Source: an uncultured bacterium
Lineage (GTDB): Bacteria > Chloroflexota > Dormibacteria > Aeolococcales > Aeolococcaceae
Reading direction: 5' to 3'
Length of the DNA: 64,000 bases
Assembly (NCBI GenBank): GCA_963847225.1
Contig: CAWJYZ010000003.1
Coordinates: 153,512-217,511 of the forward strand
Below are positions 149 through 33,432 of the stretch, piece by piece; the first letter of the stretch is position 1, and each line of letters starts with the position of its first letter. The position numbers and the translations under genes were made by a program. Under the pieces are notes generated by a model. That model was not told the DNA's origin and made no database searches. It was given only the letters and a program-made list of their open reading frames with translations.

Positions 149-1605
149 GCAGTCCCCGCCACGTCCACGTCCTGGGGATCTGCGGCTACGCGACGAGCGG
201 GGCGGCGCTCCTCGCTCGGGAGCGGGGGGACTTCGTGACCGGCAGCGACGAGCACGCCTACCCTCCCGTCACCGACATCCTCAACCGGGCGGGGATCCCC
301 TGGGAGAATCACCACGACCCGCGCAACCTCGACCGCTGGGGCCCCCCCGACCTGGTCATCGTCGCCAACGGGGTGCGCACTCACAACGAGGAGTGGCTGG
401 AGGCTGAGCGGCGCGGCATCCCCCAAGAGAGCGAGATGGAGTTCTACGTCTCCCTGTGTGGAGACCGGACGCGCCTCGCGGTCTGCGGCACCCACGGCAA
501 GACGACGACGACGGCGCTCCTCATCCACATGCTCGCGAGTGGCGGCCTCGACCCCGGGTTCCGGCTCGGCTCCCTCTCCCTCGACATGGGCGGGAGCGCC
601 CGCCTCGGCACCGGCCCCTTCGTCTTCGAGGGCGACGAGTACACGACGGCGCCGTGGGATTCCCGTCCCAAGTTCCTGCACACGCATCCCCAGGCCGCCT
701 GCGTGACCCGCCTGGAATGGGACCACCCCGATGTCTACCCGTCCTTCGGTGAATACCGGGAGCCATTTGTGCAGCTGGCGGAGAGCGTTCCGCCGTCAGG
801 TCTCCTCGTCCTCTGCGGCGACGATCCCGAGGCGCTTGCGCTCCGTTCACACGCGCGCTGTCCGGTCGTCGTCTACGGCGAGGCTCCTGGTTGCGACTGG
901 CGGGTGCGGCGCCTGGGCGACGACGGCACCGTGCAGCGCTTCCGCGTCGACTGCCGTGCGCTCAGGATCCCGGAGATCGAGCTCACCTTCCCTGGACGGC
1001 ACAATGCTCTCAACGCCACCAGTGCCCTGGCCCTCGCCCACTTCGCGGGAGCCTCGCTCGACGCCTGCGTCGCCGCCTGCGCGAGCTTCCGGGGTCCGGC
1101 CCGGCGCTTCGAGATCCTGGGCGACGCGGGCGGCGTGACCGTCGTGGACGACTATGCTCACCACCCCACCGAGTGCTGGGCGGCCATCAACGCCGCCCGC
1201 GCCCGCTACGGAGCGCGACGCATCATCGCCGTGCACACGCCGCACACGTATTCGCGCACGCGGACCCTGCTTTCCGAATATGCGCACAGCTTCGATGAGG
1301 CGGACGTGGTGGTGCTCGGTCCCATCGAGATGGCGCGGGAACGGCACCTGCCGGCAACCGTCTCCCCCGCGGACGTCGCCGCTCGGATATCGGGGCGCGC
1401 GGTGCACCTGGTGGAGGACAGCGCCGAGGGCGTCGAGTTGGTGTCGAAGCTGGCGAAATCCGGAGACGTGGTGGTGGTCCTCTCGCTGGGGGGCTTCGAC
1501 AAGATCGCGCGGCGCATCCTCGCGGCGCTGTCGGAGCGGGCAGGTGGGGGAGCTCCTCCCCCCACCCCCCGGGGACGCGCGGGTCCGCGGGGCGCGGTGC
1601 TTTGA
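145..1605 (+). CDS. murC: UDP-N-acetylmuramate--L-alanine ligase
   Basis: 486-aa ORF with the Mur ligase ATP-binding motif GTHGKTTTTALL and N-terminal Rossmann ICGYATSG. It lies within the mur/fts cluster. Confidence 0.9.
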   Translation: MSSPRHVHVLGICGYATSGAALLARERGDFVTGSDEHAYPPVTDILNRAGIPWENHHDPRNLDRWGPPDLVIVANGVRTHNEEWLEAERRGIPQESEMEFYVSLCGDRTRLAVCGTHGKTTTTALLIHMLASGGLDPGFRLGSLSLDMGGSARLGTGPFVFEGDEYTTAPWDSRPKFLHTHPQAACVTRLEWDHPDVYPSFGEYREPFVQLAESVPPSGLLVLCGDDPEALALRSHARCPVVVYGEAPGCDWRVRRLGDDGTVQRFRVDCRALRIPEIELTFPGRHNALNATSALALAHFAGASLDACVAACASFRGPARRFEILGDAGGVTVVDDYAHHPTECWAAINAARARYGARRIIAVHTPHTYSRTRTLLSEYAHSFDEADVVVLGPIEMARERHLPATVSPADVAARISGRAVHLVEDSAEGVELVSKLAKSGDVVVVLSLGGFDKIARRILAALSERAGGGAPPPTPRGRAGPRGAVL

Positions 1606-2504
1606 GCCATGCGTGGCTCACGGAGATCCCGGGGATCCTCCGGGACGAGCCGCTTTCCCGGCACTCTCAATATGGCATCGGGGGGCCGGCGGATTGGTAC
1701 CTCAAGCTCGGCGACGTCTCCCGGCTCGCGACGCTCCTGCGCCGCTGCCACGAGAGCGGCGTGCCGGTGACCGTCATCGGGGCGGGGAGCAACAGCCTCA
1801 TCCTGGACGGCGGCATCCGAGGTCTCGTCGTCGAGCTGCCGCGGGGACGGCTGCGGGAGATCACCGATAGCGTCATCGAGCTTCCCGGCGGGGCCATGAT
1901 GCCGCGCGCCGCGCTCGACTGCGCTCGGCTCGGGATCGGCGGCCTGGAGTTCGGGATCGGGGTCCCCGGCACCTGCGGGGCCTCGGTGCGGGGCAACGCC
2001 GGGGCCTTCGGTAGGGAGGTGAAGGATGCCCTCATCGACTGCGACCTGGTGGCCCCGGACGGCACCTCGGAGCACCTCATCAACCCCGAGCTCGACTTCC
2101 ACTACCGGGATTCACGGCTCAAGCGAGACCTCTCCGGTCACATCGTGACCGCCGCCCGGTTCGGGGTGCGGCGCGAGCTGCCCGCGACGGTGCGGGCTCT
2201 CACCGAGGCCATCCAGGCGGAGCGCCGCGCCACCCAGCCCTACAACGCACGCAGCCTGGGCAGCATGTTCACCAACCCGCCCGGCGACCACGCCGGCCGC
2301 CTCATCGAGATGGCCGGCCTCAAGGGGGCGCGGGTCGGCGCCGCCGAGGTATCGCTGCTGCACGCCAACTTCATCGTCAACACAGGCGGCGCCGCGGCCG
2401 GCGACGTGCAGGAGCTGATCGACCTCATCCAGCGCAGCGTGGCCGAGAAGTCCGGCGTCCATCTCGTCCCCGAGATCGCCATCCTCGGTGAGGTGGCAGG
2501 GTGA
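1602..2504 (+). CDS. murB: UDP-N-acetylenolpyruvoylglucosamine reductase
   Basis: 300 aa with the FAD-binding MurB signature (GIGGPADWYL, GAGSNSLI). The TTG start overlaps the murC stop. Confidence 0.9.
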   Translation: MSHAWLTEIPGILRDEPLSRHSQYGIGGPADWYLKLGDVSRLATLLRRCHESGVPVTVIGAGSNSLILDGGIRGLVVELPRGRLREITDSVIELPGGAMMPRAALDCARLGIGGLEFGIGVPGTCGASVRGNAGAFGREVKDALIDCDLVAPDGTSEHLINPELDFHYRDSRLKRDLSGHIVTAARFGVRRELPATVRALTEAIQAERRATQPYNARSLGSMFTNPPGDHAGRLIEMAGLKGARVGAAEVSLLHANFIVNTGGAAAGDVQELIDLIQRSVAEKSGVHLVPEIAILGEVAG

Positions 2505-3448
2505 GCGGACTGCGCATCGCGGTGGTGTGCGGGGGACCGAGCCCTGAGGCGGAGGTGTCCCGGCTGTCGGCCGCGCAGGTGAGCGCCGCGCTTCGTTCGC
2601 GGGGACACGCGTGCACCACCTTGGAGGTGGACGCCGAGCTGTGGCCGGCACTGCAGGCTGGGAGGTACGACTGCGTCTTCATCGCCGTGCACGGGCGCTT
2701 CGGCGAGGACGGCACGGTGCAGGGGGTCTGCGAGCTGCTCGGGCTGCCCTACATCGGCAGCGGCATCACCGCCACCGCGATCTGCTTCGACAAGGTGATG
2801 GCCAAGCGCCTCTTCCTCGCCGAGGGCCTGTGCACCCCCGCCTGGCTCAGCGTCCCCGCTGTTCCGGACGCTTCTGTCCCCATCGCGGGGCTGATGGAGG
2901 CGGCCGCCGGGGAGCTCGGCTACCCACTGGTGGTGAAGCCCCGTCACGGCGGCTCGACGATCGGCCTGAGCATCGTCCAGGACCCTTCCGAGCTCGTCGA
3001 AGCCCACCGGATCGCCGCCCAACACGGCGAGGTGCTCTGCGAGAGGTTCGTCGCCGGAACCGAGGTCACGGTGGGCGTGGTGAGGGATAATGCACTCCCG
3101 ACCCTCGAGATCATCTCCAACCGCCCCCTCTACGACTATGCAGCGAAATACACCACGGGTCAGAGCCGGCACATCATCCCCGCGCGCCTTCCCGAGGCGC
3201 AGCGCCGCGCCTCACAGGACGCCGCGCTCCGCGCCCATCGCACCCTGGGCTGCCGCGACCTCTCCCGCGTCGATGTCATCGTCTCCTCCCAGGGGACGCC
3301 CTGGGTGCTGGAGGTGAACGCCATCCCCGGGCTCACCGAGCTCTCCCTGCTGCCCGACGCCGCCCGCGCCGCCGGGGTTGCCTTCCCCGAGCTCTGCGAG
3401 GGGCTGGTGCAGCGGGCGCTGGACCGGGCGGCGAGGGGCGGACGGTGA
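2501..3448 (+). CDS. ddl: D-alanine--D-alanine ligase
   Basis: 315 aa with ATP-grasp Ddl motifs (IAVVCGGPSPEAEVS, EVNAIPGLT). The GTG start overlaps the murB stop. Confidence 0.9.
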   Translation: MSGLRIAVVCGGPSPEAEVSRLSAAQVSAALRSRGHACTTLEVDAELWPALQAGRYDCVFIAVHGRFGEDGTVQGVCELLGLPYIGSGITATAICFDKVMAKRLFLAEGLCTPAWLSVPAVPDASVPIAGLMEAAAGELGYPLVVKPRHGGSTIGLSIVQDPSELVEAHRIAAQHGEVLCERFVAGTEVTVGVVRDNALPTLEIISNRPLYDYAAKYTTGQSRHIIPARLPEAQRRASQDAALRAHRTLGCRDLSRVDVIVSSQGTPWVLEVNAIPGLTELSLLPDAARAAGVAFPELCEGLVQRALDRAARGGR

Positions 3449-4437
3449 TCGAAGCCCCGGAGCGGCTCGCCCACCCGGTCGACCCGCGCACCATGCACCG
3501 CGCCCGGGTCCGCGCCGTGGCTTCGGCAATCGCCTCTGACGTCGATCCGATCCGGAAGTTCGAGGCCGGGCGCGAGGTCCCCCTTCGGCGCAGCGCTCGG
3601 CGACGTCGAACTGGGACGGCACCGTCCGCGCCGGCCCCGCGGGGCCGCGACCGCCGCCTCCTCCTCGCGGCGTTCATCCTCGTCGCCGAGGTGGTGACGC
3701 TCGCCGTCCTCCTCACCGGGCCGCTGTTCCGCGTCCACGGGCTGACCGTGACCGGCACCCGCCTTCTCACCACGGAGCAGGTGACGGCGGCGGCGAGGGT
3801 GGGGAGGGGGAGCGTTTTTAGCCTGAATGCCGGCGCCGTATCCGCGCGTGTCAGCCGTCTCCCCTGGGTGCAGTCGGCGAACGTCAGCGTCGCCCTCTCC
3901 GGACGGGTCACCATCGCGGTCACCGAGCGCGCGCCGATGATCCGGGTCGTGCGCGCCGGCCGCGAGTATGCGGTGGCCTCCGACGGGGCTCAGCTTTGGC
4001 TCTCCTCGGCTCAGGAGGAGGCCCTCTCGAATGTGCCCCTCCTCATCGACCTCCGTCCCGCCGCCCTGCGCACGCCGATGAGCGCCTCGCTCGCCGACAC
4101 CCTCGGCCGCGCCGCCCTGGAGCTTCCGCGGCTGCTCGGCGTTCGAGTGGTGGCGTACGAGTGGGGCGCCCAGGCCCAGCTCTCGCTGTGGACCTCGGCG
4201 GGCTGGCAGGCGGTCCTCGGTGACCTCTCCGTCCCGGGCGCGCTCAGCGCGGTACCAGCTCAGCTCGGGGCCCTCAGCGCCCTGCGCTCTGACCTCGACT
4301 TCTCGAACCCCGCCCATCCGCACGTCGGGCGTCCCTTCGGCTACGTCAACCTCGCCGACCCCGCCGCGCCGGCGGTGGGGGGGAGGCCGGGTATCCCCGG
4401 GACGGTGAGCGCGGCCCTGACCTCGACCTCCGCCTGA
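3445..4437 (+). CDS. ftsQ: cell division protein FtsQ/DivIB (POTRA domain)
   Basis: 330 aa. A basic N-terminus is followed by one TM segment (LLLAAFILVAEVVTLAVLL). The POTRA-like region (VTGTRLLTTEQV...NVSVALSGRVTIAVTERAP) sits directly after ddl. Confidence 0.75.
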   Translation: MIEAPERLAHPVDPRTMHRARVRAVASAIASDVDPIRKFEAGREVPLRRSARRRRTGTAPSAPAPRGRDRRLLLAAFILVAEVVTLAVLLTGPLFRVHGLTVTGTRLLTTEQVTAAARVGRGSVFSLNAGAVSARVSRLPWVQSANVSVALSGRVTIAVTERAPMIRVVRAGREYAVASDGAQLWLSSAQEEALSNVPLLIDLRPAALRTPMSASLADTLGRAALELPRLLGVRVVAYEWGAQAQLSLWTSAGWQAVLGDLSVPGALSAVPAQLGALSALRSDLDFSNPAHPHVGRPFGYVNLADPAAPAVGGRPGIPGTVSAALTSTSA

Positions 4438-4529
4438 CCACCCACGCCGGCAGCGCCGAGCCGCGCGGTGCGGAGCGAGGATCAGCCGGGGGATGCACTT
4501 CACCGGGGAATCCATCGACGTCATAGGGT

Positions 4530-4558
4530 TTGACATCAAACGCTTAGATATCTAAAAT
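4530..4558 (+). promoter_or_regulatory. consensus sigma70-type promoter (TTGACA-17 bp-TAAAAT) upstream of the MFS pseudogene
   Basis: TTGACA at 4530-4535, a 17-nt spacer, then TAAAAT at 4553-4558. This sits in an unusually AT-rich stretch of a roughly 70% GC genome. It is followed by a stem-loop (AGCCCTTC...GAAGGGCT at 4559-4588), an AGGAGG ribosome-binding site, and the ATG at 4605. Confidence 0.6.
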
Positions 4559-4604
4559 AGCCCTTCGAGAGCCCCAGCGAGAAGGGCTGCAGGAGGTGAC
4601 GGCC

Positions 4605-5292
4605 ATGACGGGAGTCGTCTCGAGACCGCGGGAGGGGGCGGACCGGCGCCGCTGGTTGGCCCTCGTGTTCATCGCCCTCGCCCAGCTGCTACAGCCCACT
4701 CCAGGCGGGCCTCGCCTTCCTTCCCATGACCGTCGCCTCGCAGTCGGCCTGGCTCATCGCCCGCCGCCTCATGCCGCGGGTGCGGCCGCGCCATCTCGTC
4801 GGTCCCGGGCTCCTCGCCGCCGCCATTGGGATGCTTCTCCTCACCCAGCTGCACGCGGGGAGCGGCTACTTCGCGCAGGTCCTCCCCGCGGAGCTTCTCC
4901 TCGGCGCGGGGCTCTCCTGCGCCATGGTGCCGGCATTCAGCCTCGCCACCCTGGGGGCGGAGATGCGCCAGGCCGGGGTGGCCTCGGCCGCGGTGATGAC
5001 GGCGCAGCAGGTGGGCGGCTCGATCGGCACCGCCCTTCTCAACACGGTCGCCGCGGGCACCACGGCCGCCTATCTGATCGGCCACGGCGCGGGTGCGGCG
5101 GCGCAGCTGACCGCGCTCATCCACGGCTACACGGCGGCCACCGCCTGGGGTGGCGGCTTCCTTCTCGCCGGTGGCGCGGCCGCCCTCCTCCTCATCGACG
5201 CGCCGCGTCCGGCGGCGCAGCATGGGGCGGAGCGGCCGGAGCAGAGGCTCCAGCGCCCGGGTGCGACCGAGGCGCTCCGCGAGTCCGCGTGA
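4605..5292 (+). pseudogene. MFS (DHA2/EmrB-QacA-like) transporter with internal deletion and frame change
   Basis: Frame 0 (4605-about 4695) encodes an MFS N-terminus (RRRWLALVFIALAQLLQ). Frame +1 from about 4700 to 5292 encodes the C-terminal third (LQAGLAFLPMTVASQSAWLIARRLMPRVRP...GGSIGTALLNTVAAG). That C-terminal part aligns closely to the intact paralog at 30530..32059 (LAAGLTFLPQTLAIAVGSQVSSRLIPRLGARP...GGSLGLAVLATLAAD). About 265 aa (TM2 to roughly TM9) are missing. Confidence 0.7.
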
Positions 5293-5311
5293 TCAGGAGG
5301 GAGATGACGTC

Positions 5312-5824
5312 ATGAGCACAGCGCAGAGCTCGCCGGGATCGCGCCGGCCGCTGGGCCGGCGCATCCAGCGGCGCTTCTTCCGCGTCGTCAATATCGGGAT
5401 GCGGCGGATCCTCGGCCTTCCCTTCCGGACGCCGATGAGCGGCCGGCTCATGCTCCTGCATCTCACCGGGCGGAGGACCGGCCGCCTCCACCTCCAGCCG
5501 GTGAGCTACGTCCGTGACGGCGAGACCCTGCTGACCCCGGGGGGAGGGAATTGGAAGCTGAACCTCGTGGAGGGCCAGCCGGTCCCGGTGCAGCTGGAGG
5601 GGAGGGCGCGCACGCTGCGTCCCGAGATGGTCCGCGACGCGGACACGATCGAGCGCCTCCTTGGTGTCATGACCAGGTCCAACCCCATGGTGAGCCGCTT
5701 CGTGGGCATGCGCCGGGGTCCCGACGGCCGCCTGGACCGCGCCGCGCTGGAGCGGGCCATGGCCCACGGGTTCGTCATCGTCCGCTGGCATCCGGAGGCG
5801 GAGGGCACCGGCCCCTCCCGGTGA
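5312..5824 (+). CDS. deazaflavin-dependent nitroreductase family (Ddn/DUF385-like) protein
   Basis: 171 aa from the ATG at 5312, with a GGAGG ribosome-binding site at 5295-5303. The sequence pattern (LLHLTGRRTGRLHLQPVSYVRDGETLLTPGGGNWKLNLVEGQPVPVQLEGRARTL) is typical of small F420/FMN-binding split-barrel nitroreductase-family proteins. The family call is by motif memory only. Confidence 0.5.
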   Translation: MSTAQSSPGSRRPLGRRIQRRFFRVVNIGMRRILGLPFRTPMSGRLMLLHLTGRRTGRLHLQPVSYVRDGETLLTPGGGNWKLNLVEGQPVPVQLEGRARTLRPEMVRDADTIERLLGVMTRSNPMVSRFVGMRRGPDGRLDRAALERAMAHGFVIVRWHPEAEGTGPSR

Positions 5825-6188
5825 TCTCACGGCTGGACACGCCGGGCGGCTGGCCAGTCGGGGAGCTGCCGCGGACGAGATCGTGCGGGCCCTCGGCAGG
5901 CACCTCCGCGTCTACCTGGTGTCGACAAGGTGGTCAGCCGGTCAATGGCTCTGACCTCCGCCCGTTGGCGGGTCGGCTCATTACTTCGCGGCCTTCACGC
6001 GTTGGTTGCAGTAGGTGACATTCCAGTTGCACGTGCCCGACCGCGTCCCGATCACCCGGGGCTGGTTCCTGGGGTGCTCGGCTGGCGTCGCAGTCCAGCG
6101 GTAGTCGGGGAGCCGGCGGGGAGGCCATGGAGCAGAGGGTGGCATCGAGGCGGGGAAGTCACGGGATCGCGGCCGCAGACTGGACCCG

Positions 6189-7076
6189 CTAGCGGCGGCC
6201 CTCCCAGGGCCGCGCCGCGAGCAGAGCCGAGAGGATGGCGCGCGTCGCGGGGGAACGGTTCATGGTGTAGAAGTGGATGCCCGGTGCCCCGGCGCCGAGC
6301 AGCTCCGCGCACTGGAGGGTCGACCAGGCGACGCCCAGATCCATGACGGCGTGGGGGTCGTCGCGGCGCGCCTCGAAGGCGCTGATCAACTCCCCGGGGA
6401 TCTTGACCTGCAGCCGGGCGATGAAGCCGTGAAGCTGCGCAACGCTGGTGATGGGCATGATGCCGGGGATGATGGGGGCGGTGATGCCCGCCTTGCGGGC
6501 GGCGGCCACGAAGTCGAAGTAGGCACGGTTGTCGTAGAACAGCTGGGTGATGAGGTAGGCCATCCCCGCTTCGACCTTCTCGCGCGTCCAGCGCAGCTCA
6601 TCGGCCAGGGAGGTGGTCTCGAGGTGGACCTCCGGATAGCAGGCGCCACCCACGCAGACGTCGTACTGCTCGCGAATGAGGCGGGCCAGCTCGGAGCCGT
6701 GGGACAGCCCATCCGGGACGGGGGTGAAGACCGTCTCACCCCGCGGCGGGTCTCCGCGCAGCGCGAGGACGTTCTCGATGCCGCTGTCGACAATGCGGCG
6801 GAGCACCTCGTGGAGCTCGGCTCGGTTGGCTCCCACACAGGTGAGGTGAGCGACGGGAAGGATGTCGAGCCCGCGGCGGATCCGGGCCACGAGCTCGACC
6901 GTGCGCGTTCGGGTGCTGCCCCCAGCACCATAGGTGACCGAGACGAAACCCGGCTCCAGCTCCCGGAGCTGGGAGATGGTGGTGAAGAGGGCCGTCACGC
7001 CGTCGTCGTCCCGGGGTGGGAAGAACTCGAAGCTGAAGTTGGGACGCCCCTGCCCCAGGAGATCGATCACCCGCAT
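6189..7076 (-). CDS. metF: methylenetetrahydrofolate reductase
   Basis: 295 aa with a full-length MetF fold signature (VSVTYGAGGSTRTRT, LTCVGANRAELHEVL, HFYTMN). Confidence 0.9.
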   Translation of the reverse strand: MRVIDLLGQGRPNFSFEFFPPRDDDGVTALFTTISQLRELEPGFVSVTYGAGGSTRTRTVELVARIRRGLDILPVAHLTCVGANRAELHEVLRRIVDSGIENVLALRGDPPRGETVFTPVPDGLSHGSELARLIREQYDVCVGGACYPEVHLETTSLADELRWTREKVEAGMAYLITQLFYDNRAYFDFVAAARKAGITAPIIPGIMPITSVAQLHGFIARLQVKIPGELISAFEARRDDPHAVMDLGVAWSTLQCAELLGAGAPGIHFYTMNRSPATRAILSALLAARPWEGRR

Positions 7077-7219
7077 GGTCAGGCCATGGTGCCAGAGACG
7101 TCGATCGGGCGTACCCAGATTGACAACAGATCGGCGCGGAGACGGCCAGCTTGCTCGCCACGTACCGTCTTCCCAAGGTCACGGCGCAATTCTGGCGCCT
7201 CTTGCGCTATAATGGCGCT

Positions 7220-7462
7220 ATGGCCACCATTCAGGTGCGTGAGGTCCCGGAGGAAGTCCACCGAACCTACCGAGCGAGAGCCGCAGCTGCCGGGATGAGC
7301 CTGACGGAGTACCTACGGGCCGAGCTCATCCGCAACGCCAGCATGCTCACCCCCGCTGAGGTCGCCGATGAGGTCGACGCTGAGATCCGCCATGAAGGGT
7401 CTGAGGGCTTCGCCGTCCGCTCCTCGGCTCGTATCGTCCGAGCCGATCGCGCCTCACACTGA
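7220..7462 (+). CDS. vapB: type II antitoxin, ribbon-helix-helix (VapB/FitA-like)
   Basis: 80 aa from the in-frame ATG at 7220 (MATIQVREVPEEVHRTYRARAAAAGMSLTEYLRAELIRNAS). A TATAAT sits 6 nt upstream (7208-7213), suggesting a leaderless transcript. A PIN-domain ORF follows immediately. Confidence 0.7.
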   Translation: MATIQVREVPEEVHRTYRARAAAAGMSLTEYLRAELIRNASMLTPAEVADEVDAEIRHEGSEGFAVRSSARIVRADRASH

Positions 7463-7469
7463 CAGAGGA

Positions 7470-7862
7470 GTGGCGGTTCTCGACGCCTCGCTCGTCGTCG
7501 ACGCGCTGGTGGTGTCTGGGGGGGCCGGGTGGCGCGCCAGGAAGGCGCTTCGGGAAGAGGCGGTGCTTCAGGTGCCTGCGATCTTTTCGGCAGAGGTTAC
7601 GTCAGCCCTCCGAGGCTTGCTCCTCCGTGGGGAGCTCAGCCCGATGCGTGTTGGTGCCGCCCGCCGCCGGCTCCGTCGCATTCGAACGGTCCAATATGCC
7701 CTCGAGCCGTTCGCCGATCGAGTGTGGGCGCTCCACGCCAACCTCACTGTCTACGACGCGTGGTACGTCGCCCTCGCCGAGCGCCTGGGAATGGACCTGC
7801 TGACATCCGACCGTCGGCTGGCGTCCGCCCAGGGGCCGCGCTGCCGGGTGCGCGCCATCTGA
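7470..7862 (+). CDS. vapC: PIN-domain toxin VapC
   Basis: The probable GTG start at 7470 lies 8 nt after the antitoxin stop. The N-terminus VAVLDASLVVDAL contains the conserved PIN Asp, and the C-terminal part contains Asp residues (...WYVALAERLGMDLLTSDRRL). The start is uncertain; the ORF track shows an ATG at 7368 that would overlap vapB. Confidence 0.65.
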   Translation: MAVLDASLVVDALVVSGGAGWRARKALREEAVLQVPAIFSAEVTSALRGLLLRGELSPMRVGAARRRLRRIRTVQYALEPFADRVWALHANLTVYDAWYVALAERLGMDLLTSDRRLASAQGPRCRVRAI

Positions 7863-13679: not shown

Positions 13680-14588
13680 TCACCCACGGCGCGTCGGTTC
13701 CGGCGCGGGCGGCGAGGGTACCCGCACGGTGAGCCCGTGGGCCAGAACCGTGACGGTGAGGGATGAGCCCTTCGCCATGACCTCGCCGTCCACCTCGCGG
13801 AGCAGCGGACGGGCAGAGTGAATCTCGACGTGGCGAGCGCGATGGTGCTCGAGGAGGGCGTCGCTGGCCGAGCTTCCGACGATCACCCGCCATCCCACTC
13901 GCGCCCAGCTGGGCAGGTCCGGCGGTGCGAGGATGGCCACATCGAGGAGGCCGTCGTCGAGGCGCGCGCTGCGGAGGATGGCGAAGCCGCCGGGGAGAAG
14001 CCCGGCGTTGCCCACGAAGATCGACCTCGCCCGGCGGCGCAGCTCCGGTCCGCCGTCGAGGCTTATCGAGAAGGCCGTGGCCGGTCCTCCGAGGTGGATC
14101 AATCCGGCCAGCGCGTATCCCACCCAGCCGAGGTGCCCCTTGACGACGGCCGGGGTGCCTCGAACCACCTCGGCATCGAGCCCGATGCCGGCCATGGCGA
14201 CGAAGGCCCGGCCCTCGGCAAGGCCGATATCGATGCGCCGATCGCCTCCCCTCAATGCGGCCTCCAGAGCCGGCCCGAGCCGGCGGGGCAGGCCGAGAGC
14301 CGTCGCCGCGATGTTGGCAGTGCCGAGGGGAACGATGCCGAGCGCGATACCCGTGCCCTGGAGTGCCTCGGCGCAGGCGCGCACGGTGCCGTCCCCGCCG
14401 GCGGCGACGACCAGCTCGGCGCCGGCGGTGATCGCCCGGCGCGTCGCGAGGAGCCCGTCGCGGGGTCGGGTCGTCTCGAGGATGAGCGGCTCCCACCCCG
14501 CCCCGCGCGCCGCGACGCGGCAGGCGCGGCGGAGCCACGCCGGGTCGTCCACCCTGGTGCGGTTGATGACGAAGGCAACACGTGGCAT
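13680..14588 (-). CDS. diacylglycerol kinase catalytic-domain lipid kinase (YegS/BmrU family)
   Basis: 302 aa. The DAGK_cat motif ELVVAAGGDGTVRA is present, together with the ...GIVPLGTANIAATALG loop. Confidence 0.8.
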   Translation of the reverse strand: MPRVAFVINRTRVDDPAWLRRACRVAARGAGWEPLILETTRPRDGLLATRRAITAGAELVVAAGGDGTVRACAEALQGTGIALGIVPLGTANIAATALGLPRRLGPALEAALRGGDRRIDIGLAEGRAFVAMAGIGLDAEVVRGTPAVVKGHLGWVGYALAGLIHLGGPATAFSISLDGGPELRRRARSIFVGNAGLLPGGFAILRSARLDDGLLDVAILAPPDLPSWARVGWRVIVGSSASDALLEHHRARHVEIHSARPLLREVDGEVMAKGSSLTVTVLAHGLTVRVPSPPAPEPTRRG

Positions 14589-14725: not shown

Positions 14726-16069
14726 TCAGGCGGGCGGACCGGCGGCGAGGGTGATGGACGTCGTGTGCTGCGTCCCGGAGGCGTCCATCCAGCCGAGCTG
14801 GATGGTCTGGTCAGGGTGGTCGCCCTTCAGGGCGGTGGAGAGGTCACCGACGCCGGTGATGGCCGTGCCGTTCACGCTCACGATGACGTCGCCGGCCTGG
14901 AGCCCGGCCCGCGCCGCCGGCGATCCGGGGATCACCTGGGCGATGAGCGCGCCCCCGCTCGGAGATGCCACCGACGGATTCGCGTCCTGCACCTCCACGC
15001 CGATGAGCGGGCCCGAGCCTCCAATGACGACGTTTCCGCTCGCCGCGCCGCTCTGGATCTGATGAACGATGCTCATCGCGGTGTCGATGGGGATGGCGAA
15101 GCCGACGGTGCTGCTGATCCCGGTCCCGGAGGCGACGGGGGCGCCGGAGGAGGAGCCGGCGGTGTCCATGCCCACGACCTTCCCGGCGGCGTCGACGAGC
15201 GGACCTCCGGAGTCCCCGGGAACGATGTCCGCGGCCAGCTGGATGGCGCCGTTGAGCGTCTCCGAGGTGGCGCCGTCGCTCGCCGTCACCGTCTGATCGA
15301 GGGCGGTGACGGTGCCGGCGACGACGGCCGGGCTACCCCCTCGTCCGTAGGCGTTGCCGAGGGCCACCACCTGATCGCCGACCTGGAGGGAGGACGAATC
15401 GCCGATGGGAGCGGCCCTCAAGGTCGGGGCGTTCTCGATCTGGAGGAGAGCCACGTCGTCGGTCGCGTCATAGCCCAGCACCTTGGCCGAGTAGGTCGGA
15501 CCCTGACCGTCCACCTGGGCGGTGATGTTGGTGGCGCCGTCGATCACGTGGTTGTTGGTGAGCACCTCGCCGCTCGAGGTGATGATGATCCCGGTGCCTG
15601 CTGCCGGCGAGCCGTTGATGACGTCCTTGATGTCGACGACAGAGGGGTCGATCGCGGCGGCGATGGTGGAGGCGTTGGCGCTCCCCCCACCGGTGGATGG
15701 CGAGCCGCTCGGGCTCTGCCCTCCCCGCAGGGCCAGGCCGATGCCCGCGCCCACCCCGCCGGCGGCGAGGGCGACCGCCACGCCGCCGGCGAGCATCGCC
15801 GCCAGCAGGCGCCGGCGATGGCGGGGCGGCCGGGGCGCCGCCGCCGGATGGCCCGGCGGCGGTGGATAGGGAGGCGGATAGGGAGGCCCCCAGAAGGGGG
15901 GGCCCCAGGTGGGGGGACCCCAGCTCTGCTCAGGCGGGGACCATGCCGGGGGGTCGCCAGCCCCCGGTGCGGGTGGGGGAGGCGCGGCCCACGATTCCCA
16001 CGCGGCACCGGCGTCGGAGGGCTGGCCGGCGGTCTCGGGCGGTTCGTTGGTGCTCGGTGTCTCAGTCAT
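14726..16069 (-). CDS. htrA: HtrA/DegP-family trypsin-like serine protease with PDZ domain, proline-rich N-terminus
   Basis: Catalytic triad context is present (TNNHVI, DVALLQ, GDSGGPLVD), with a C-terminal PDZ domain. The N-terminal roughly 90 aa are Pro/Trp-rich (PPYPPPYPPPPGHP), followed by a TM helix. Confidence 0.85.
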   Translation of the reverse strand: MTETPSTNEPPETAGQPSDAGAAWESWAAPPPPAPGAGDPPAWSPPEQSWGPPTWGPPFWGPPYPPPYPPPPGHPAAAPRPPRHRRRLLAAMLAGGVAVALAAGGVGAGIGLALRGGQSPSGSPSTGGGSANASTIAAAIDPSVVDIKDVINGSPAAGTGIIITSSGEVLTNNHVIDGATNITAQVDGQGPTYSAKVLGYDATDDVALLQIENAPTLRAAPIGDSSSLQVGDQVVALGNAYGRGGSPAVVAGTVTALDQTVTASDGATSETLNGAIQLAADIVPGDSGGPLVDAAGKVVGMDTAGSSSGAPVASGTGISSTVGFAIPIDTAMSIVHQIQSGAASGNVVIGGSGPLIGVEVQDANPSVASPSGGALIAQVIPGSPAARAGLQAGDVIVSVNGTAITGVGDLSTALKGDHPDQTIQLGWMDASGTQHTTSITLAAGPPA

Positions 16070-16234
16070 CTCTCGTCAACCTCATCTGCATCACGAGACG
16101 AAGCCTAGGAGGGACATGCTTTCAAGCTCATGACGCTGGTGCGGGGGATGGCGCACCGATCGGGGCGCGCGGCGGTTCCGCGGCTCGGGAGGGCGGTCGG
16201 AGGCTGGGTCCGCCACGGGCTCCATCTGGTGGAG

Positions 16235-30083: not shown

Positions 30084-30470
30084 TCAGGCGGGGGGCAGCT
30101 CGGGGTCGGGCGCCGCCAGGATGGCGTCGACCAGCCCGGGGAAGCGAAGGTCGAGGCCCTCGCGATCAAGACTGGTCATGCGCCGGGTGCCCTCCTCTCG
30201 CTGCGTGACGATGCCCGCGGCGCGGAGCACGTGCAGGTGGTGGCTCATCGTCGACTTGCTGATGGGGAGCCTGAGAGCGCCGCAGGGGCATTCGTCGCCA
30301 GAGGCGAGGCGCCGGACGATGGCGAGGCGCATGGGATCGGCCAGGGCCTGAAGCACCCCGACGACGCCGGGATGGAGGGGCGGAGAGGCTGCCCCAGCGT
30401 TCCCCTCCCCGGCTGCGACCGGAAGCGGGTCCGTCTGGAGGCCAGGTCCGCCTAGAAGTTTGACATCCAT
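30084..30470 (-). CDS. ArsR/SmtB-family transcriptional regulator
   Basis: The winged HTH (LQALADPMRLAIVRRLASGDECPCGALRLPISKSTMSHHLHVLRAAGIV) contains a Cys pair in the metal-sensing position. The start is taken at MDVKLL (128 aa). It is divergent from the MFS transporter. Confidence 0.75.
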   Translation of the reverse strand: MDVKLLGGPGLQTDPLPVAAGEGNAGAASPPLHPGVVGVLQALADPMRLAIVRRLASGDECPCGALRLPISKSTMSHHLHVLRAAGIVTQREEGTRRMTSLDREGLDLRFPGLVDAILAAPDPELPPA

Positions 30471-30503
30471 CGAACTATATCGTACGATCCGCATCGAACT
30501 ATA
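30468..30503. promoter_or_regulatory. putative ArsR operator: two 12-bp direct repeats CATCGAACTATA flanking the 10-bp palindrome ATCGTACGAT in the arsR/MFS divergent intergenic region
   Basis: Read directly from the sequence. This is the AT-richest 36 bp of the locus. Direct repeat 1 overlaps the arsR start codon, and a GGGAGAG ribosome-binding site for the MFS gene follows. Confidence 0.5.
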
Positions 30504-30529
30504 GCAGGACGCGGTAGGGAGAGAGCCAG

Positions 30530-32059
30530 ATGGGGCAGGCGAGCTTCGGGGGGCGACGGCTTCGGACCGGTGGCAAGGGTGCGGGGGAGAGGACGGCACG
30601 CGGCGGGAGCTGGCCCCGGCTTCTGGCCCCCCAGTGGGTCGTCCTCCTCCTCGTCTGTCTCGGCCAGTTCCTGGTCATCCTTGACCTCTCGGTGGTGAAC
30701 GTGGCCCTGCCCTCGATTCGCAGAGACCTCGGTTTCACCGCCGACGGCCTGCAGTGGGTGGTCAACGCCTACGCGCTCACCTTCGCCGGCTTCCTCCTCC
30801 TCGCCGGCCGGGGAGCGGACCGCTTCGGGCGGCGCCGCCTCCTCCTCGCGGGGCTCGCCCTCTTCTCCCTGGCGAGCCTCCTCGACGGCCTGGCGTCGAC
30901 CCAGTGGGAGCTGGTGGCCGCGCGGGCCCTGCAGGGCTTTGGTGGGGCCATCCTCACCCCGGCCACGCTCACCATCCTGATCGCCACCTACCCCGAGGGG
31001 CGGGCGCGAGCTCGGGCTCTCGGGATCTGGAGTGGGGTGGCCGCGGCGGGCGGCGCCGCCGGGGCGCTCCTCGGCGGAGTCATCACCCAGTACCTGAGCT
31101 GGCGCTGGATCTTCTTCATCAACCTGCCGATCGGCATCGTGGTGCTGGTGCTCGCCAGCCTGGTGATCGCCGAGACCTTCGGCGACCTGCGCGGCCGCCA
31201 CCTGGACCTGGGCGGGGCGATCAGCGTCACCGGGGGCCTCTCCGCGCTGGCCTGGGGTATCGCCCGCAGTCAGGCGGCCGGATGGGAGGCCCCCGACGTC
31301 CTGGGCGCCTTCGCCGCCGGGCTCGCCCTTCTCGCCCTCTTCGTCTTCATCGAGGCGCGCCTGGCCCGGGTGCCGCTCGTCCCTCTGCGGCTGTTCCGGT
31401 CCCGTTCGGTCACCGGGGCGAACCTCGTGTCCTTTGGGCTCGGCGCGGCGCTCTTCGCCATCTGGTACTTCCTCTCCCTGTACCTGCAGCAGGTGCGCGG
31501 CTTGACGCCGCTGGCGGCAGGGCTGACGTTCCTGCCCCAGACGCTGGCCATCGCCGTCGGCTCCCAGGTCAGCTCCCGGCTCATCCCGAGGCTGGGGGCG
31601 CGGCCCTTCCTGGTGGGCGGTCCGCTGCTCGGCGTGGCCGGCCTGCTCTGGCTGGCCCAACTCTCCGTGTCCCCGGCGATCTGGTCGGCGGTGCTGATCC
31701 CGGGGGCTCTCCTCACCTTCGGTGCTGGGCTCACCTTCCCGGCCGTCACCATCGCCGCCACGTCGGGCGTGCCTCGCGGAGAGGCTGGCCTGGCCAGCGG
31801 CGTCGTCAACACCAGCCGGCAGGTGGGCGGTTCGCTGGGATTGGCGGTGCTGGCCACTCTCGCCGCCGACCACAGCGCCGCCCTCGCCGCGGCCGGCAGC
31901 GCCGCCCCGGTCGCCCTCACCGGGGGCTACACCCTGGGGCTCGTCGTCGCGGCGGGCGTCGCTCTGGCCACCGCGCTGGCCGGGCTCGTGGTGCCGGGGA
32001 TCGGTCGGCCCGCCCGGCAGGAGAGGCCGATCGGTGAGGTGCAGGAGGCGGCCGCCTGA
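30530..32059 (+). CDS. MFS transporter, DHA2 (EmrB/QacA) 14-TM family
   Basis: 509 aa with about 14 predicted hydrophobic segments and the MFS signature GRGADRFGRRR. It is likely regulated by the adjacent ArsR. Confidence 0.85.
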   Translation: MGQASFGGRRLRTGGKGAGERTARGGSWPRLLAPQWVVLLLVCLGQFLVILDLSVVNVALPSIRRDLGFTADGLQWVVNAYALTFAGFLLLAGRGADRFGRRRLLLAGLALFSLASLLDGLASTQWELVAARALQGFGGAILTPATLTILIATYPEGRARARALGIWSGVAAAGGAAGALLGGVITQYLSWRWIFFINLPIGIVVLVLASLVIAETFGDLRGRHLDLGGAISVTGGLSALAWGIARSQAAGWEAPDVLGAFAAGLALLALFVFIEARLARVPLVPLRLFRSRSVTGANLVSFGLGAALFAIWYFLSLYLQQVRGLTPLAAGLTFLPQTLAIAVGSQVSSRLIPRLGARPFLVGGPLLGVAGLLWLAQLSVSPAIWSAVLIPGALLTFGAGLTFPAVTIAATSGVPRGEAGLASGVVNTSRQVGGSLGLAVLATLAADHSAALAAAGSAAPVALTGGYTLGLVVAAGVALATALAGLVVPGIGRPARQERPIGEVQEAAA

Positions 32060-32369: not shown

Positions 32370-32746
32370 TGGTGGAGCCGAGGGGAATCGAACCCCTGTC
32401 CGAAACCGCGTTCCGCGTGACCTCTACGAGCGTAGTCCCGGTTTTGCTCTCACTCTCGGCGCGCCCTGGGACCAGGCTCGCCGGGAGCCAGCCGCGGTGA
32501 GCGTCCCGGCCGGCGCCGCGGCGCCACCGGCCGGCGAGACCGCTGGTATTTACGTCGGCTCAGGCCCCCGCGGTCGAGGGACCCGACGACGTCAGGCCGT
32601 GGCCTGAGCTTTTTCTCGTTCTACCGCTTACGCGGCGAGGGCGAGAGCAGGTGCGTCGTTCGCACGTATTGTTTTCCCGGTTTTACGAGCCCGGGGCTCG
32701 GCCCGCCATCACACGACCCACGATCCCGTCGAATCCATACGGCCCC
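32370..32746 (-). ncRNA. ssrA: transfer-messenger RNA (tmRNA, ssrA); encoded tag (A)NDAPALALAA
   Basis: The minus-strand 5' end GGGGCCGUAUGGAUUCGACGGG matches the tmRNA 5' consensus. The 3' end ...GGACAGGGGUUCGAUUCCCCUCGGCUCCACCA has a T-arm plus an acceptor stem pairing with GGGGCCG, and CCA is encoded. The internal ORF GCG AAC GAC GCA CCU GCU CUC GCC CUC GCC GCG UAA translates to a tag ending in ALAA. smpB lies 4.5 kb upstream. Confidence 0.85.
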
Positions 32747-32808: not shown

Positions 32809-33432
32809 TCAAACTGCCGGCTGGCCAGCAGCCCGCCGCGCCGCCTCCTCCAGGCGCTGGCGATATGCCTCCCACCAGCCGGCGTCCACGGGTGGGAGGT
32901 TTTCGCTGCCGGCCTTCCAGCCGACGGCGCCATCGATCATCTCTCGGACGATGTCGGCCTGACCGGCGTGCCGGTTCGTCTCAGCGATCACGTGCACCAG
33001 GATCCGGTTCAGGGTCACCCCCTTGCCGGGCTTCCACCAGGTCACGTCGCCGATGGCCTCGAGGGGAAGCGCCTCGATGGTGGCGTCGGAGTGCGCCCAG
33101 ACCCGCCGGTAGAGATCGAGGATCTCCTCCCGGAACTCGTCGGCGGTCGCCCACATGTCGGCGTTGGGCTCTGCCCCGGCCGCGTACCAGGGGAACCGCT
33201 CCATGTAGGGGACGCCGTCGAATGGCCGGCCGAAGGTCTCGCCGAGGTAGCCGGCCTCGACGCTCGCCACGTGCTTCACGAGGCCGAGCAGGTTGGTGCC
33301 CGTGGGCACCATGGGCCGGCGCACGTCGTACTCGGAGAGGCCGTCGAGCTTCCACAGGAGGGTCTCGCGCGCCTCCCGCAGGTAGCGGTGCAGATCCTCC
33401 TTGGCGCCCGTCGCCGTCATGGAACGCACCAT
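32809..33432 (-). CDS. DinB/DUF664-family protein (four-helix-bundle metalloenzyme-like)
   Basis: 207 aa with the conserved DUF664 pattern (LHRYLREARETLLWKLDGLSEYDVRRPMVPTGTNLLGLVKHVASVEAGY...ILVHVIAETNRHAGQADIVREMIDG). Confidence 0.65.
   Translation of the reverse strand: MVRSMTATGAKEDLHRYLREARETLLWKLDGLSEYDVRRPMVPTGTNLLGLVKHVASVEAGYLGETFGRPFDGVPYMERFPWYAAGAEPNADMWATADEFREEILDLYRRVWAHSDATIEALPLEAIGDVTWWKPGKGVTLNRILVHVIAETNRHAGQADIVREMIDGAVGWKAGSENLPPVDAGWWEAYRQRLEEAARRAAGQPAV

Follow-up and report, generated by a model that had tools for sequence, protein, structure and literature searches.

We analysed a 64,000-nt stretch (hereafter the window) of contig CAWJYZ010000003.1, which comes from an uncultured bacterium of the Dormibacteria, and focus here on the locus between its ftsQ and metF genes. 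A near-consensus promoter stands there in front of what is left of a gene for a DHA2 transporter of the major facilitator superfamily (MFS), and an intact gene for a reductase-like protein follows. An earlier note, made from the letters of the DNA, had described this as a transporter pseudogene kept behind a perfect sigma-70-like promoter and ribosome binding site. Our main reference for comparison is L005, the corresponding locus of a related metagenome-assembled genome (MAG), MFD09222.bin.3.133. The features that the argument needs are, with Shine-Dalgarno abbreviated to SD, open reading frame to ORF and transmembrane helix to TM:

4438-4512, no strand assigned: spacer of 75 bp without detectable marR remnant, which holds the left breakpoint of the marR loss
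4513-4528, no strand assigned: degenerate marR-proximal third operator site, CATCGACGTCATAGGG as compared with the consensus catcgATATCTAAgNg, a partial match
4529-4555, plus strand: putative MarR operator core TTTGACATCAAACGCTTAGATATCTAA, with palindromes; 33 of 43 positions identical to L005 intergenic DNA when aligned over 4513-4555
4530-4558, plus strand: predicted sigma-70-type promoter, TTGACA at 4530-4535, 17 nt, TAAAAT at 4553-4558 (11/12 consensus positions)
4591-4596, plus strand: SD AGGAGG, separated by 8 nt from the ATG at 4605; CAGGAGG is homologous in L005
4605-4689, plus strand: N-terminal remnant of the DHA2 MFS gene, 28 codons and 1 nt, comprising the cytoplasmic N-terminus and the first half of TM1
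4605-5315, plus strand: ORF from the retained ATG, 29 native codons (28 certain, and a CTA across the junction) followed by 207 out-of-frame codons
4689-4690, plus strand: deletion junction ...CAGCTG-C-TACAGC..., at which 827 nt are absent relative to L005 14344-15170
4690-5292, plus strand: C-terminal remnant of the DHA2 MFS gene, 200 codons and TGA, comprising TM10-TM14 and the tail, in the +1 frame relative to ATG 4605
5295-5300, plus strand: SD AGGAGG of the reductase-like gene, recognized by its sequence
5312-5824, plus strand: intact F420H2-dependent quinone-reductase-like gene (deazaflavin-dependent nitroreductase family), 170 aa, 19 nt after the MFS stop

Read in frame 0 from the ATG at 4605, the transporter remnant begins MTGVVSRPREGADRRRWLALVFIALAQL(L), which is the counterpart of the DHA2 N-terminus RRWVALAFIALAQLM of locus L004. 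Among the closest homologs (55-65% identical) are genes, in L004 and L003, with N-termini reading RRWVALAFIALAQLMAALDATIV, and the motif RRWLALVFIALAQL is common to the remnant and to the N-termini in L003, L004 and L005. From 4690 onward the homology continues in the +1 frame as YSPLQAGLAFLP...RESA*, which can also be written YSPLQAGLAFLPMTVASQ...RESA, and runs for 200 codons to the stop at 5290-5292. The N-terminus thus lies in frame 0 and the C-terminal part in frame +1, as the earlier note had it, with the switch at 4689/4690. The joined remnant matches Pfam MFS_1 (PF07690) over positions 232-347 of 347 with a score of 31.2 (cut-off 33.4), and TIGR00711 (EmrB/DHA2) over positions 287-410 of 485 with 50.7 bits (cut-off 230). 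Its DHA2 match therefore covers the last third of the profile and stays below the curated cut-off; for comparison, the intact DHA2 gene (30530-32059) reaches 245 bits on TIGR00711 and 185 on PF07690. Of the fourteen helices of the DHA2 architecture TM10-14 are kept, as seen by hydropathy mapping on a 485-aa homolog, and no single frame runs uninterrupted from start to stop. Judged by the homology of both remaining parts, the remnant is a descendant of a DHA2 transporter that lacks each of these functional hallmarks. When aligned with this intact gene, over its residues 326-506, it shows 41% identity with 15 gap positions (E = 1e-16), so that the match once called residue-for-residue is a real alignment but an approximate one. 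As identity reaches 55-65% with DHA2 homologs of a different subgroup, the remnant and the gene at 30530 are no recent paralogs.

The breakpoint, which the earlier note had proposed to locate by alignment, was found by comparing the DNA with L005. Window positions 4650-4688 correspond to L005 14305-14343 (32 of 39 nt identical) and position 4690 onward corresponds to L005 15172 onward (70% nucleotide identity over L005 15172-15660), which places the two breakpoints at L005 14343 and 15172; a single C (4689) between the two blocks is assigned to neither. The gap relative to this positional ortholog, which lies between the same flanking genes, is 827 nt and hence of the form 3n+2, and one deletion therefore accounts for both the lost helices and the +1 offset. 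An internal deletion of ~800 bp had been predicted correctly; the additional frameshift that had been postulated gives way to this single event. The lost segment corresponds to residues 33-306 of a 485-codon homolog, from the C-terminal half of TM1 through TM9 by hydropathy mapping, which agrees with the earlier estimate of TM2 to about TM9. We saw no repeat or homopolymer at the junction CAGCTGCTACAGC, and microhomology or repeats were rejected as a feature of note: at most 2 nt are shared, as judged from L005 since the ancestral sequence is lacking. The gene thus carries a disabling lesion relative to its near-full-length positional ortholog. The same gap, frame change and retained promoter and SD are found in Logan contig L002 (run ERR11594399, 3,777 bp), an independent k-mer assembly, probably of the same reads as the window assembly, which is 100% identical to window 2695-6471 with the junction included. 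The locus is best read as a pseudogene that arose by an internal deletion, in keeping with the initial proposal.

The promoter at 4530-4558 consists of sigma-70-type hexamers whose spacer falls within the 16-18 nt range. It stands alone in the first 12 kb (0.3 expected) and is the sole 11/12 site on both strands of the 64 kb (~0 expected, 100 simulations). The GC content is 34% over 4520-4560 as compared with 71.1% for the window, so the description of a near-consensus -35, 17-nt spacer, -10 and ribosome binding site (AGGAGG, 4591-4596) in DNA of ~70% GC was accurate. A riboswitch or structured RNA in the leader was considered and rejected, the only Rfam match in the window being tmRNA; a hairpin at 4559-4588, spanning the predicted start site, lacks conservation in L005. 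There are two 10/12 sites in the window, one upstream of the tmRNA gene and one upstream of the intact MFS gene at 30530. The former (TTGACC-16-TATCAT, at 32812, minus strand) is just upstream of the tmRNA gene at 32370-32746 (minus strand; Rfam RF00023, 161.6 bits). The latter (TTGACA-17-TACGAT, 30460-30488, plus strand), the only further TTGACA-17-TAnnnT match on that strand, is just upstream of the DHA2 gene and in or beside the divergent ORF of an ArsR/HTH_20-family regulator (30084-30599, minus strand); this ORF and the DHA2 gene at 30530 are probably a separate intact regulator-pump pair. Because of the position of these two sites, sigma-70-type consensus promoters appear to be used in the host organism.

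Both hexamers of the promoter at 4530-4558 are covered by inverted repeats of the type TTAG-N4-CTAA. Site B (4529-4540, TTTGACATCAAA) contains the -35, and site A (4544-4555), the perfect palindrome TTAGATATCTAA, overlaps the -10; the conserved cassette to which they belong can be written TTTGACATCTAAC-NN-TTAGATATCTAA and occupies 4513-4558 in the window and 14106-14151 in L005. The aligned DNA of L005 (14106-14148) is intergenic and ends at the start of the marR ORF. Window 4513-4528 aligns to L005 14106-14121, which contains the ATG (14106-14108) of the longest marR ORF; the true start of this marR may be a GTG slightly upstream, as in other copies of the element.

To see how widespread this cassette is, we scanned metagenome contigs with the pattern of positions common to the window and L005, TTTGACATCNAACNNTTAGNNATCTAA, a 27-mer with 23 fixed bases. 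Exact matches were found in 93 soil-metagenome stretches (L085-L177). We read 80 of the 93 loci, of which 72 were unique and 70 testable for a divergent gene, and drew a consensus from 70 unique sequences; the element is thus conserved across independent loci. A divergent MarR-family gene lies ~40 nt upstream in 58 of the 70 testable cassettes. Its product belongs to PF01047, the nearest solved structures include SlyA, and the JGI label is the SlyA KO name; this SlyA-like MarR subfamily comprises >5,600 sequence clusters at E <= 1e-20. The first downstream gene encodes an ABC ATPase in 30 copies, a short-chain dehydrogenase/reductase (SDR) in 13, a DHA2 MFS transporter in nine, a homolog of the window reductase in eight and a glyoxalase in three; in most copies the downstream gene serves detoxification or efflux. 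Beyond the fixed bases the consensus reads catcgATATCTAAgNgTTTGACATCTAACNNTTAGATATCTAA, which is ~45 bp long and bidirectional, is kept nearly base for base and repeats a 12-mer motif three times, in related versions spaced 15 bp apart. In roughly half of the cassettes a start codon follows the -10 at a distance of 5-9 nt, so that they look leaderless. Solo cassettes in the metagenomes lack the third, marR-proximal site. In ~1.4 Mb of fetched loci, searched with up to 5 mismatches, no cassettes other than those of the window and L005 were found.

Because MepR-like 12-mers cover the -35 and the -10, the perfect TTGACA falls within an operator site common to the whole cassette family. The promoter that had seemed striking is therefore indeed near-consensus, but the metagenome scan and the L005 alignment show it to be a copy of a conserved MarR cassette. 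The -10 is a different matter. In the window TAAAAT matches TATAAT at 5/6 positions, as compared with 3-4/6 in the 72 unique metagenome cassettes and L005, whose hexamers are of the type TAA(T/G/C)(C/G/T)T; this may be a genome-specific up-promoter change, or chance. Overall, the control region of the window has the sequence features expected of a MepR/SlyA-type MarR operator, except for an adjacent regulator.

That regulator gene has been lost at the locus. The divergent marR present in L005 and in most testable cassettes is absent, and tblastn with two MarR proteins found no MarR homolog at the locus or elsewhere in the 64-kb window. The consensus upstream of position -17, i.e., the marR start codon and its own -10, is unmatched in the window. 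A marR remnant in 4438-4512 was sought and rejected, the local DNA alignment to the L005 marR scoring 23 as compared with 20.0 ± 2.7 for shuffled sequences. The copy in the window looks like a marR-linked cassette that lost its marR through a second deletion, since it has a degenerate third site, whereas solo cassettes have none.

Downstream of the remnant the reductase-like gene scores 27 bits on PF04075 (cut-off 22) and 28.8 bits on TIGR00026, the latter below the cut-off. The eight of 72 metagenome copies in which its homolog is the first gene behind the cassette encode proteins 50-61% identical to it, and the order MFS then reductase recurs in L005 and L003. We conclude that the reductase-like gene is probably the present beneficiary of the promoter. 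In an annotation the strong promoter would be better attributed to the operon, probably to the reductase gene, and not to a transporter. In L003, an intact trio of MFS, F420H2_quin_red and MarR genes was seen at 1083-3632.

The genes flanking the locus are:

3445-4437, plus strand: ftsQ, with an FtsQ-type POTRA_1 domain, the last gene of murC-murB-ddl-ftsQ and the left flank of the islet
6189-7076, minus strand: metF (methylenetetrahydrofolate reductase, PF02219, E = 1.5e-84), the right flank, convergent with ftsQ

Genes for a Mur ligase, MurB and Ddl lie upstream of ftsQ in the window. Related loci were found by a ddl-based search of reference genomes, in which the best matches had a Ddl 72-77% identical to that of the window and which assigned the window to Candidatus Dormibacterota; an FtsQ homolog follows ddl in all of the related Dormibacterota loci. 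At 90% identity the proteins of the window are all singletons. In L005, Ddl and MetF are 77% and 78% identical to those of the window. Between its ftsQ and metF L005 carries a glycosyltransferase gene, a divergent marR, a near-full-length MFS gene and a reductase homolog; remnants of the other L005 islet genes (the glycosyltransferase and a 239-aa ORF) were sought in the window and not found. Among the Dormibacterota (L005-L030, L071) the distance between ftsQ and metF varies, with 57 bp as the smallest value and 7.4 kb, in L011, as the largest, and is below 450 bp in 13 of the 20 related loci that hold both genes; inserts of ~1.6-2.3 kb occur at this junction in L019, L021 and L025. As ftsQ and metF are mostly less than 450 bp apart and other loci have inserts, we regard the MFS and reductase genes as an accessory islet.

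The L005 copy of the islet carries lesions of its own. Its reductase homolog (15773-16186) lacks 147 nt (49 codons) of the core, in frame, and its MFS gene is frameshifted by 1 nt at ~15445, perhaps through an error in the long reads. Decay of the islet may thus be taking a different course in each of the two lineages, or the L005 MAG, built from long reads, may contain indel errors. Among long contigs, the closest homologs are disrupted as well, in L003 (4275-5732, an in-frame CAG-to-TAG nonsense codon) and L004 (1768-3224, a frameshift), both near codon 229-245; the MFS genes of these two loci follow a divergent gene of the MarR or TetR type and a conserved gene for a membrane protein of ~190 aa. 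These disruptions may be sequencing errors or a selection bias from choosing short matches.

Taken together, we conclude, with a probability of roughly 85%, that the locus is a wrecked marR-MFS-reductase islet between ftsQ and metF whose promoter probably still serves the reductase gene. The original order would have been a divergent marR, a DHA2 MFS efflux pump and the F420H2-dependent reductase-like gene. One deletion of ~0.82 kb removed MFS codons ~29-305 and left the remaining 200 codons out of frame, so that no functional transporter can result; the pump is dead. Another deletion, with its breakpoint just left of 4513, would have taken the divergent marR together with its own -10. What has survived are the two intact TTAG-N4-CTAA sites interleaved with TTGACA and TAAAAT, and after them an SD and a start codon. 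RNA polymerase would then still be firing from this promoter, and transcription would run through the dead MFS gene and on into the reductase gene, itself intact and provided with an SD of its own. We speculate that the promoter is free of repression or that a paralogous MarR which recognises the same operator represses it in trans. The pristine promoter and ribosome binding site would stem from the need to express the reductase gene, or from the recency of the deletion. The pseudogene itself is ordinary gene decay in a small accessory islet, and its striking promoter has a mundane explanation.

Several observations weigh against this reading. That the promoter is active and that transcription continues as far as the reductase gene are predictions. 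The 200 codons of the C-terminal remnant are free of further stops and frameshifts, and no decay signal in it reached significance: two of 37 highly conserved columns are altered, as compared with a mean of 2.6 in homologs, and Tajima-type relative-rate tests against L005 with eleven outgroups were not significant (chi-square 0.03-2.4). An undecayed remnant is what a recent deletion would leave, but it would equally be seen if selection still acted on the fragment. Furthermore, L005 is ~65% identical in protein, and the junction, the microhomology and the length of the deletion are therefore approximate (827 +/- a few nt, 3n+2). As both assemblies probably share their reads, a minority intact allele could exist in the population. 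Finally, the search for MarR was confined to 64 kb, and a trans-acting marR paralog may lie beyond.

The rival that fares best, which is possible though we consider it the lesser prospect, is that the promoter is merely too young to have decayed and serves nothing, the whole islet, reductase gene included, being on its way out. The lesions of L005 would fit such a course, as the reductase homolog there has lost part of its core and the MFS gene is nearly intact, which points to lineages decaying differently; most relatives are without the islet, and in the window marR is already gone and the third operator site lost or degenerate. However, the reductase gene of the window is full length, has an SD and scores above its Pfam threshold. 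In addition, the -10 TAAAAT surpasses those of all 72 other cassettes, which drift alone would not predict, and sites A and B are intact beside a degenerate neighbouring site.

The cassette itself allows a wider suggestion, which we put forward tentatively. It may stand for a regulatory system of uncultured soil bacteria that is large and has not been described so far. The window copy would then be an orphan that was kept, with its -10 sharpened to TAAAAT, so that paralogous MarRs acting in trans go on controlling the reductase gene now that the cognate marR and the pump are both lost. Such a system would consist of a three-site SlyA/MepR-like operator in a bidirectional, often leaderless promoter, reused before ABC exporters, SDRs, MFS pumps, glyoxalases and F420-dependent reductases. 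The cassette would offer an operator sequence and a promoter architecture for Dormibacterota-like soil bacteria, of which there are, to our knowledge, very few cultured representatives and no experimentally mapped promoters.

A quite different view is that the C-terminal fragment is a working gene, either as a 188-aa ORF from 4726 or as a fusion, which would yield a small five-helix membrane protein. We consider this very improbable. The public record does annotate, on a 1.46-Mb contig, a coding sequence (CDS) of 188 aa at 4726-5292 (P0001), with the N-terminal remnant and the frame break unrepresented, and the same protein is encoded on contig L002. The reading frame is open, its GC content at third codon positions is 0.91, as in real genes, the family-conserved residues are kept and, as said, no significant rate acceleration was detected. 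However, there is no SD before the ATG at 4726, and a ribosome that starts at the ATG at 4605, behind its strong SD, would pass over the fragment in the other frame, down to 5315. The N-domain is missing altogether from the fragment, as is TM9, with which the six-helix bundle of the C-domain begins, and its TIGR00711 score is far below the cut-off; going by MFS architecture, no MFS domain can be built from five helices out of fourteen. A truncated expressed product, which the earlier note had left as an option, is unlikely for the same reasons, namely the missing SD at 4726, the five helices being too few and the wrong frame of the ribosomes from 4605. The CDS at 4726-5292 labelled MFS should carry a pseudogene-fragment flag.

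The ORF from 4605 ends with a TGA at 5313-5315 that overlaps the ATG of the next gene at 5312 (ATGA). We rejected this as significant: the shifted frame of five other genes contains 1-4 stops per 170-509 codons, or ~0.7 per 100 codons, and an open run of 207 codons is expected about one quarter of the time.

A similarly 5'-truncated homolog in L001 might be taken to favour a working fragment. It is a C-terminal MFS fragment of 179 aa at 5849-6540, 151 bp from a divergent TetR gene, and its homology begins within 2-3 codons of the window breakpoint (PLEAGLAFLP); the truncation is probably independent. L001 was found by picking short matches, which makes the coincidence weak, and it lacks the common N-terminal remnant, its upstream region scoring at the shuffle mean. 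An ancient deletion shared with L001 (P0021; motif PL(Q/E)AGLAFLP) was also considered and rejected, as the upstream sequence of L001 is unlike any MFS N-terminus. Its nearest full-length-like relative, P0002 (~75-80% identical by eye), is intact across the breakpoint; given this and the missing N-terminus, there were two independent events.

That the deletion, or the 1-nt offset alone, is an assembly or sequencing artefact, and the true gene intact or in frame, is hardly credible: the genome is a metagenome-derived assembly and the L005 copy carries a frameshift of 1 nt that long-read error may explain, but misassembly is unlikely because the k-mer assembly of ERR11594399 agrees with the window at every one of 3,777 bp, no homopolymer occurs at the junction CAGCTGCTACAGC and its two sides share no repeat able to collapse an assembly. 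The loss of 827 nt is, as far as we know, not an error mode of any sequencing platform.

Among known systems, the control region most resembles the MepR operators of Staphylococcus aureus. At mepR and mepA, GTTAG-N4-CTAAC inverted repeats lie over the -35, the -10 and the transcription start site, and abutting sites cover both promoter hexamers of the efflux-pump gene divergent from the regulator (PMC3936728). The half-site and the spacing are the same in the window, and TTAGATATCTAA lies within a palindromised MepR operator oligonucleotide (PMC3936728). MepR differs in belonging to another phylum, and the cassette regulator is only distantly related to it, being SlyA-like by profile and PDB comparison. 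There are one or two MepR sites as compared with three at 15-bp spacing in the cassette, with its often leaderless layout. In the window, moreover, the regulator gene is absent and the operator is a predicted one.

The likeness to the 14-transmembrane-segment DHA2 drug:H+ antiporters (EmrB/QacA/LfrA, TIGR00711) is limited to the 28 N-terminal and 200 C-terminal codons; with half of TM1 through TM9 gone and the rest out of frame, the window differs from them in being a remnant only. The gene at 5312-5824 is above the PF04075 threshold for the F420H2-dependent quinone reductases and Ddn-like nitroreductases (PF04075, TIGR00026), and as in the trios of L003 and L005 the reductase follows an MFS gene near a MarR gene; it is, however, a divergent member (27 bits on PF04075, below the TIGR00026 cut-off), and F420 use is a prediction only. 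In unitary bacterial pseudogenes formed by out-of-frame internal deletion, sequence homologous to functional genes likewise flanks a gap at which the frame breaks, and the upstream signals are retained. The sole feature that the window adds to these is an intact second operon gene, which may keep the promoter under selection.

Right after metF, a FitA-like ribbon-helix-helix antitoxin ORF (7151-7462) overlaps a PIN-domain ORF (7368-7862, plus strand), a pair that looks like a VapBC-type toxin-antitoxin system.

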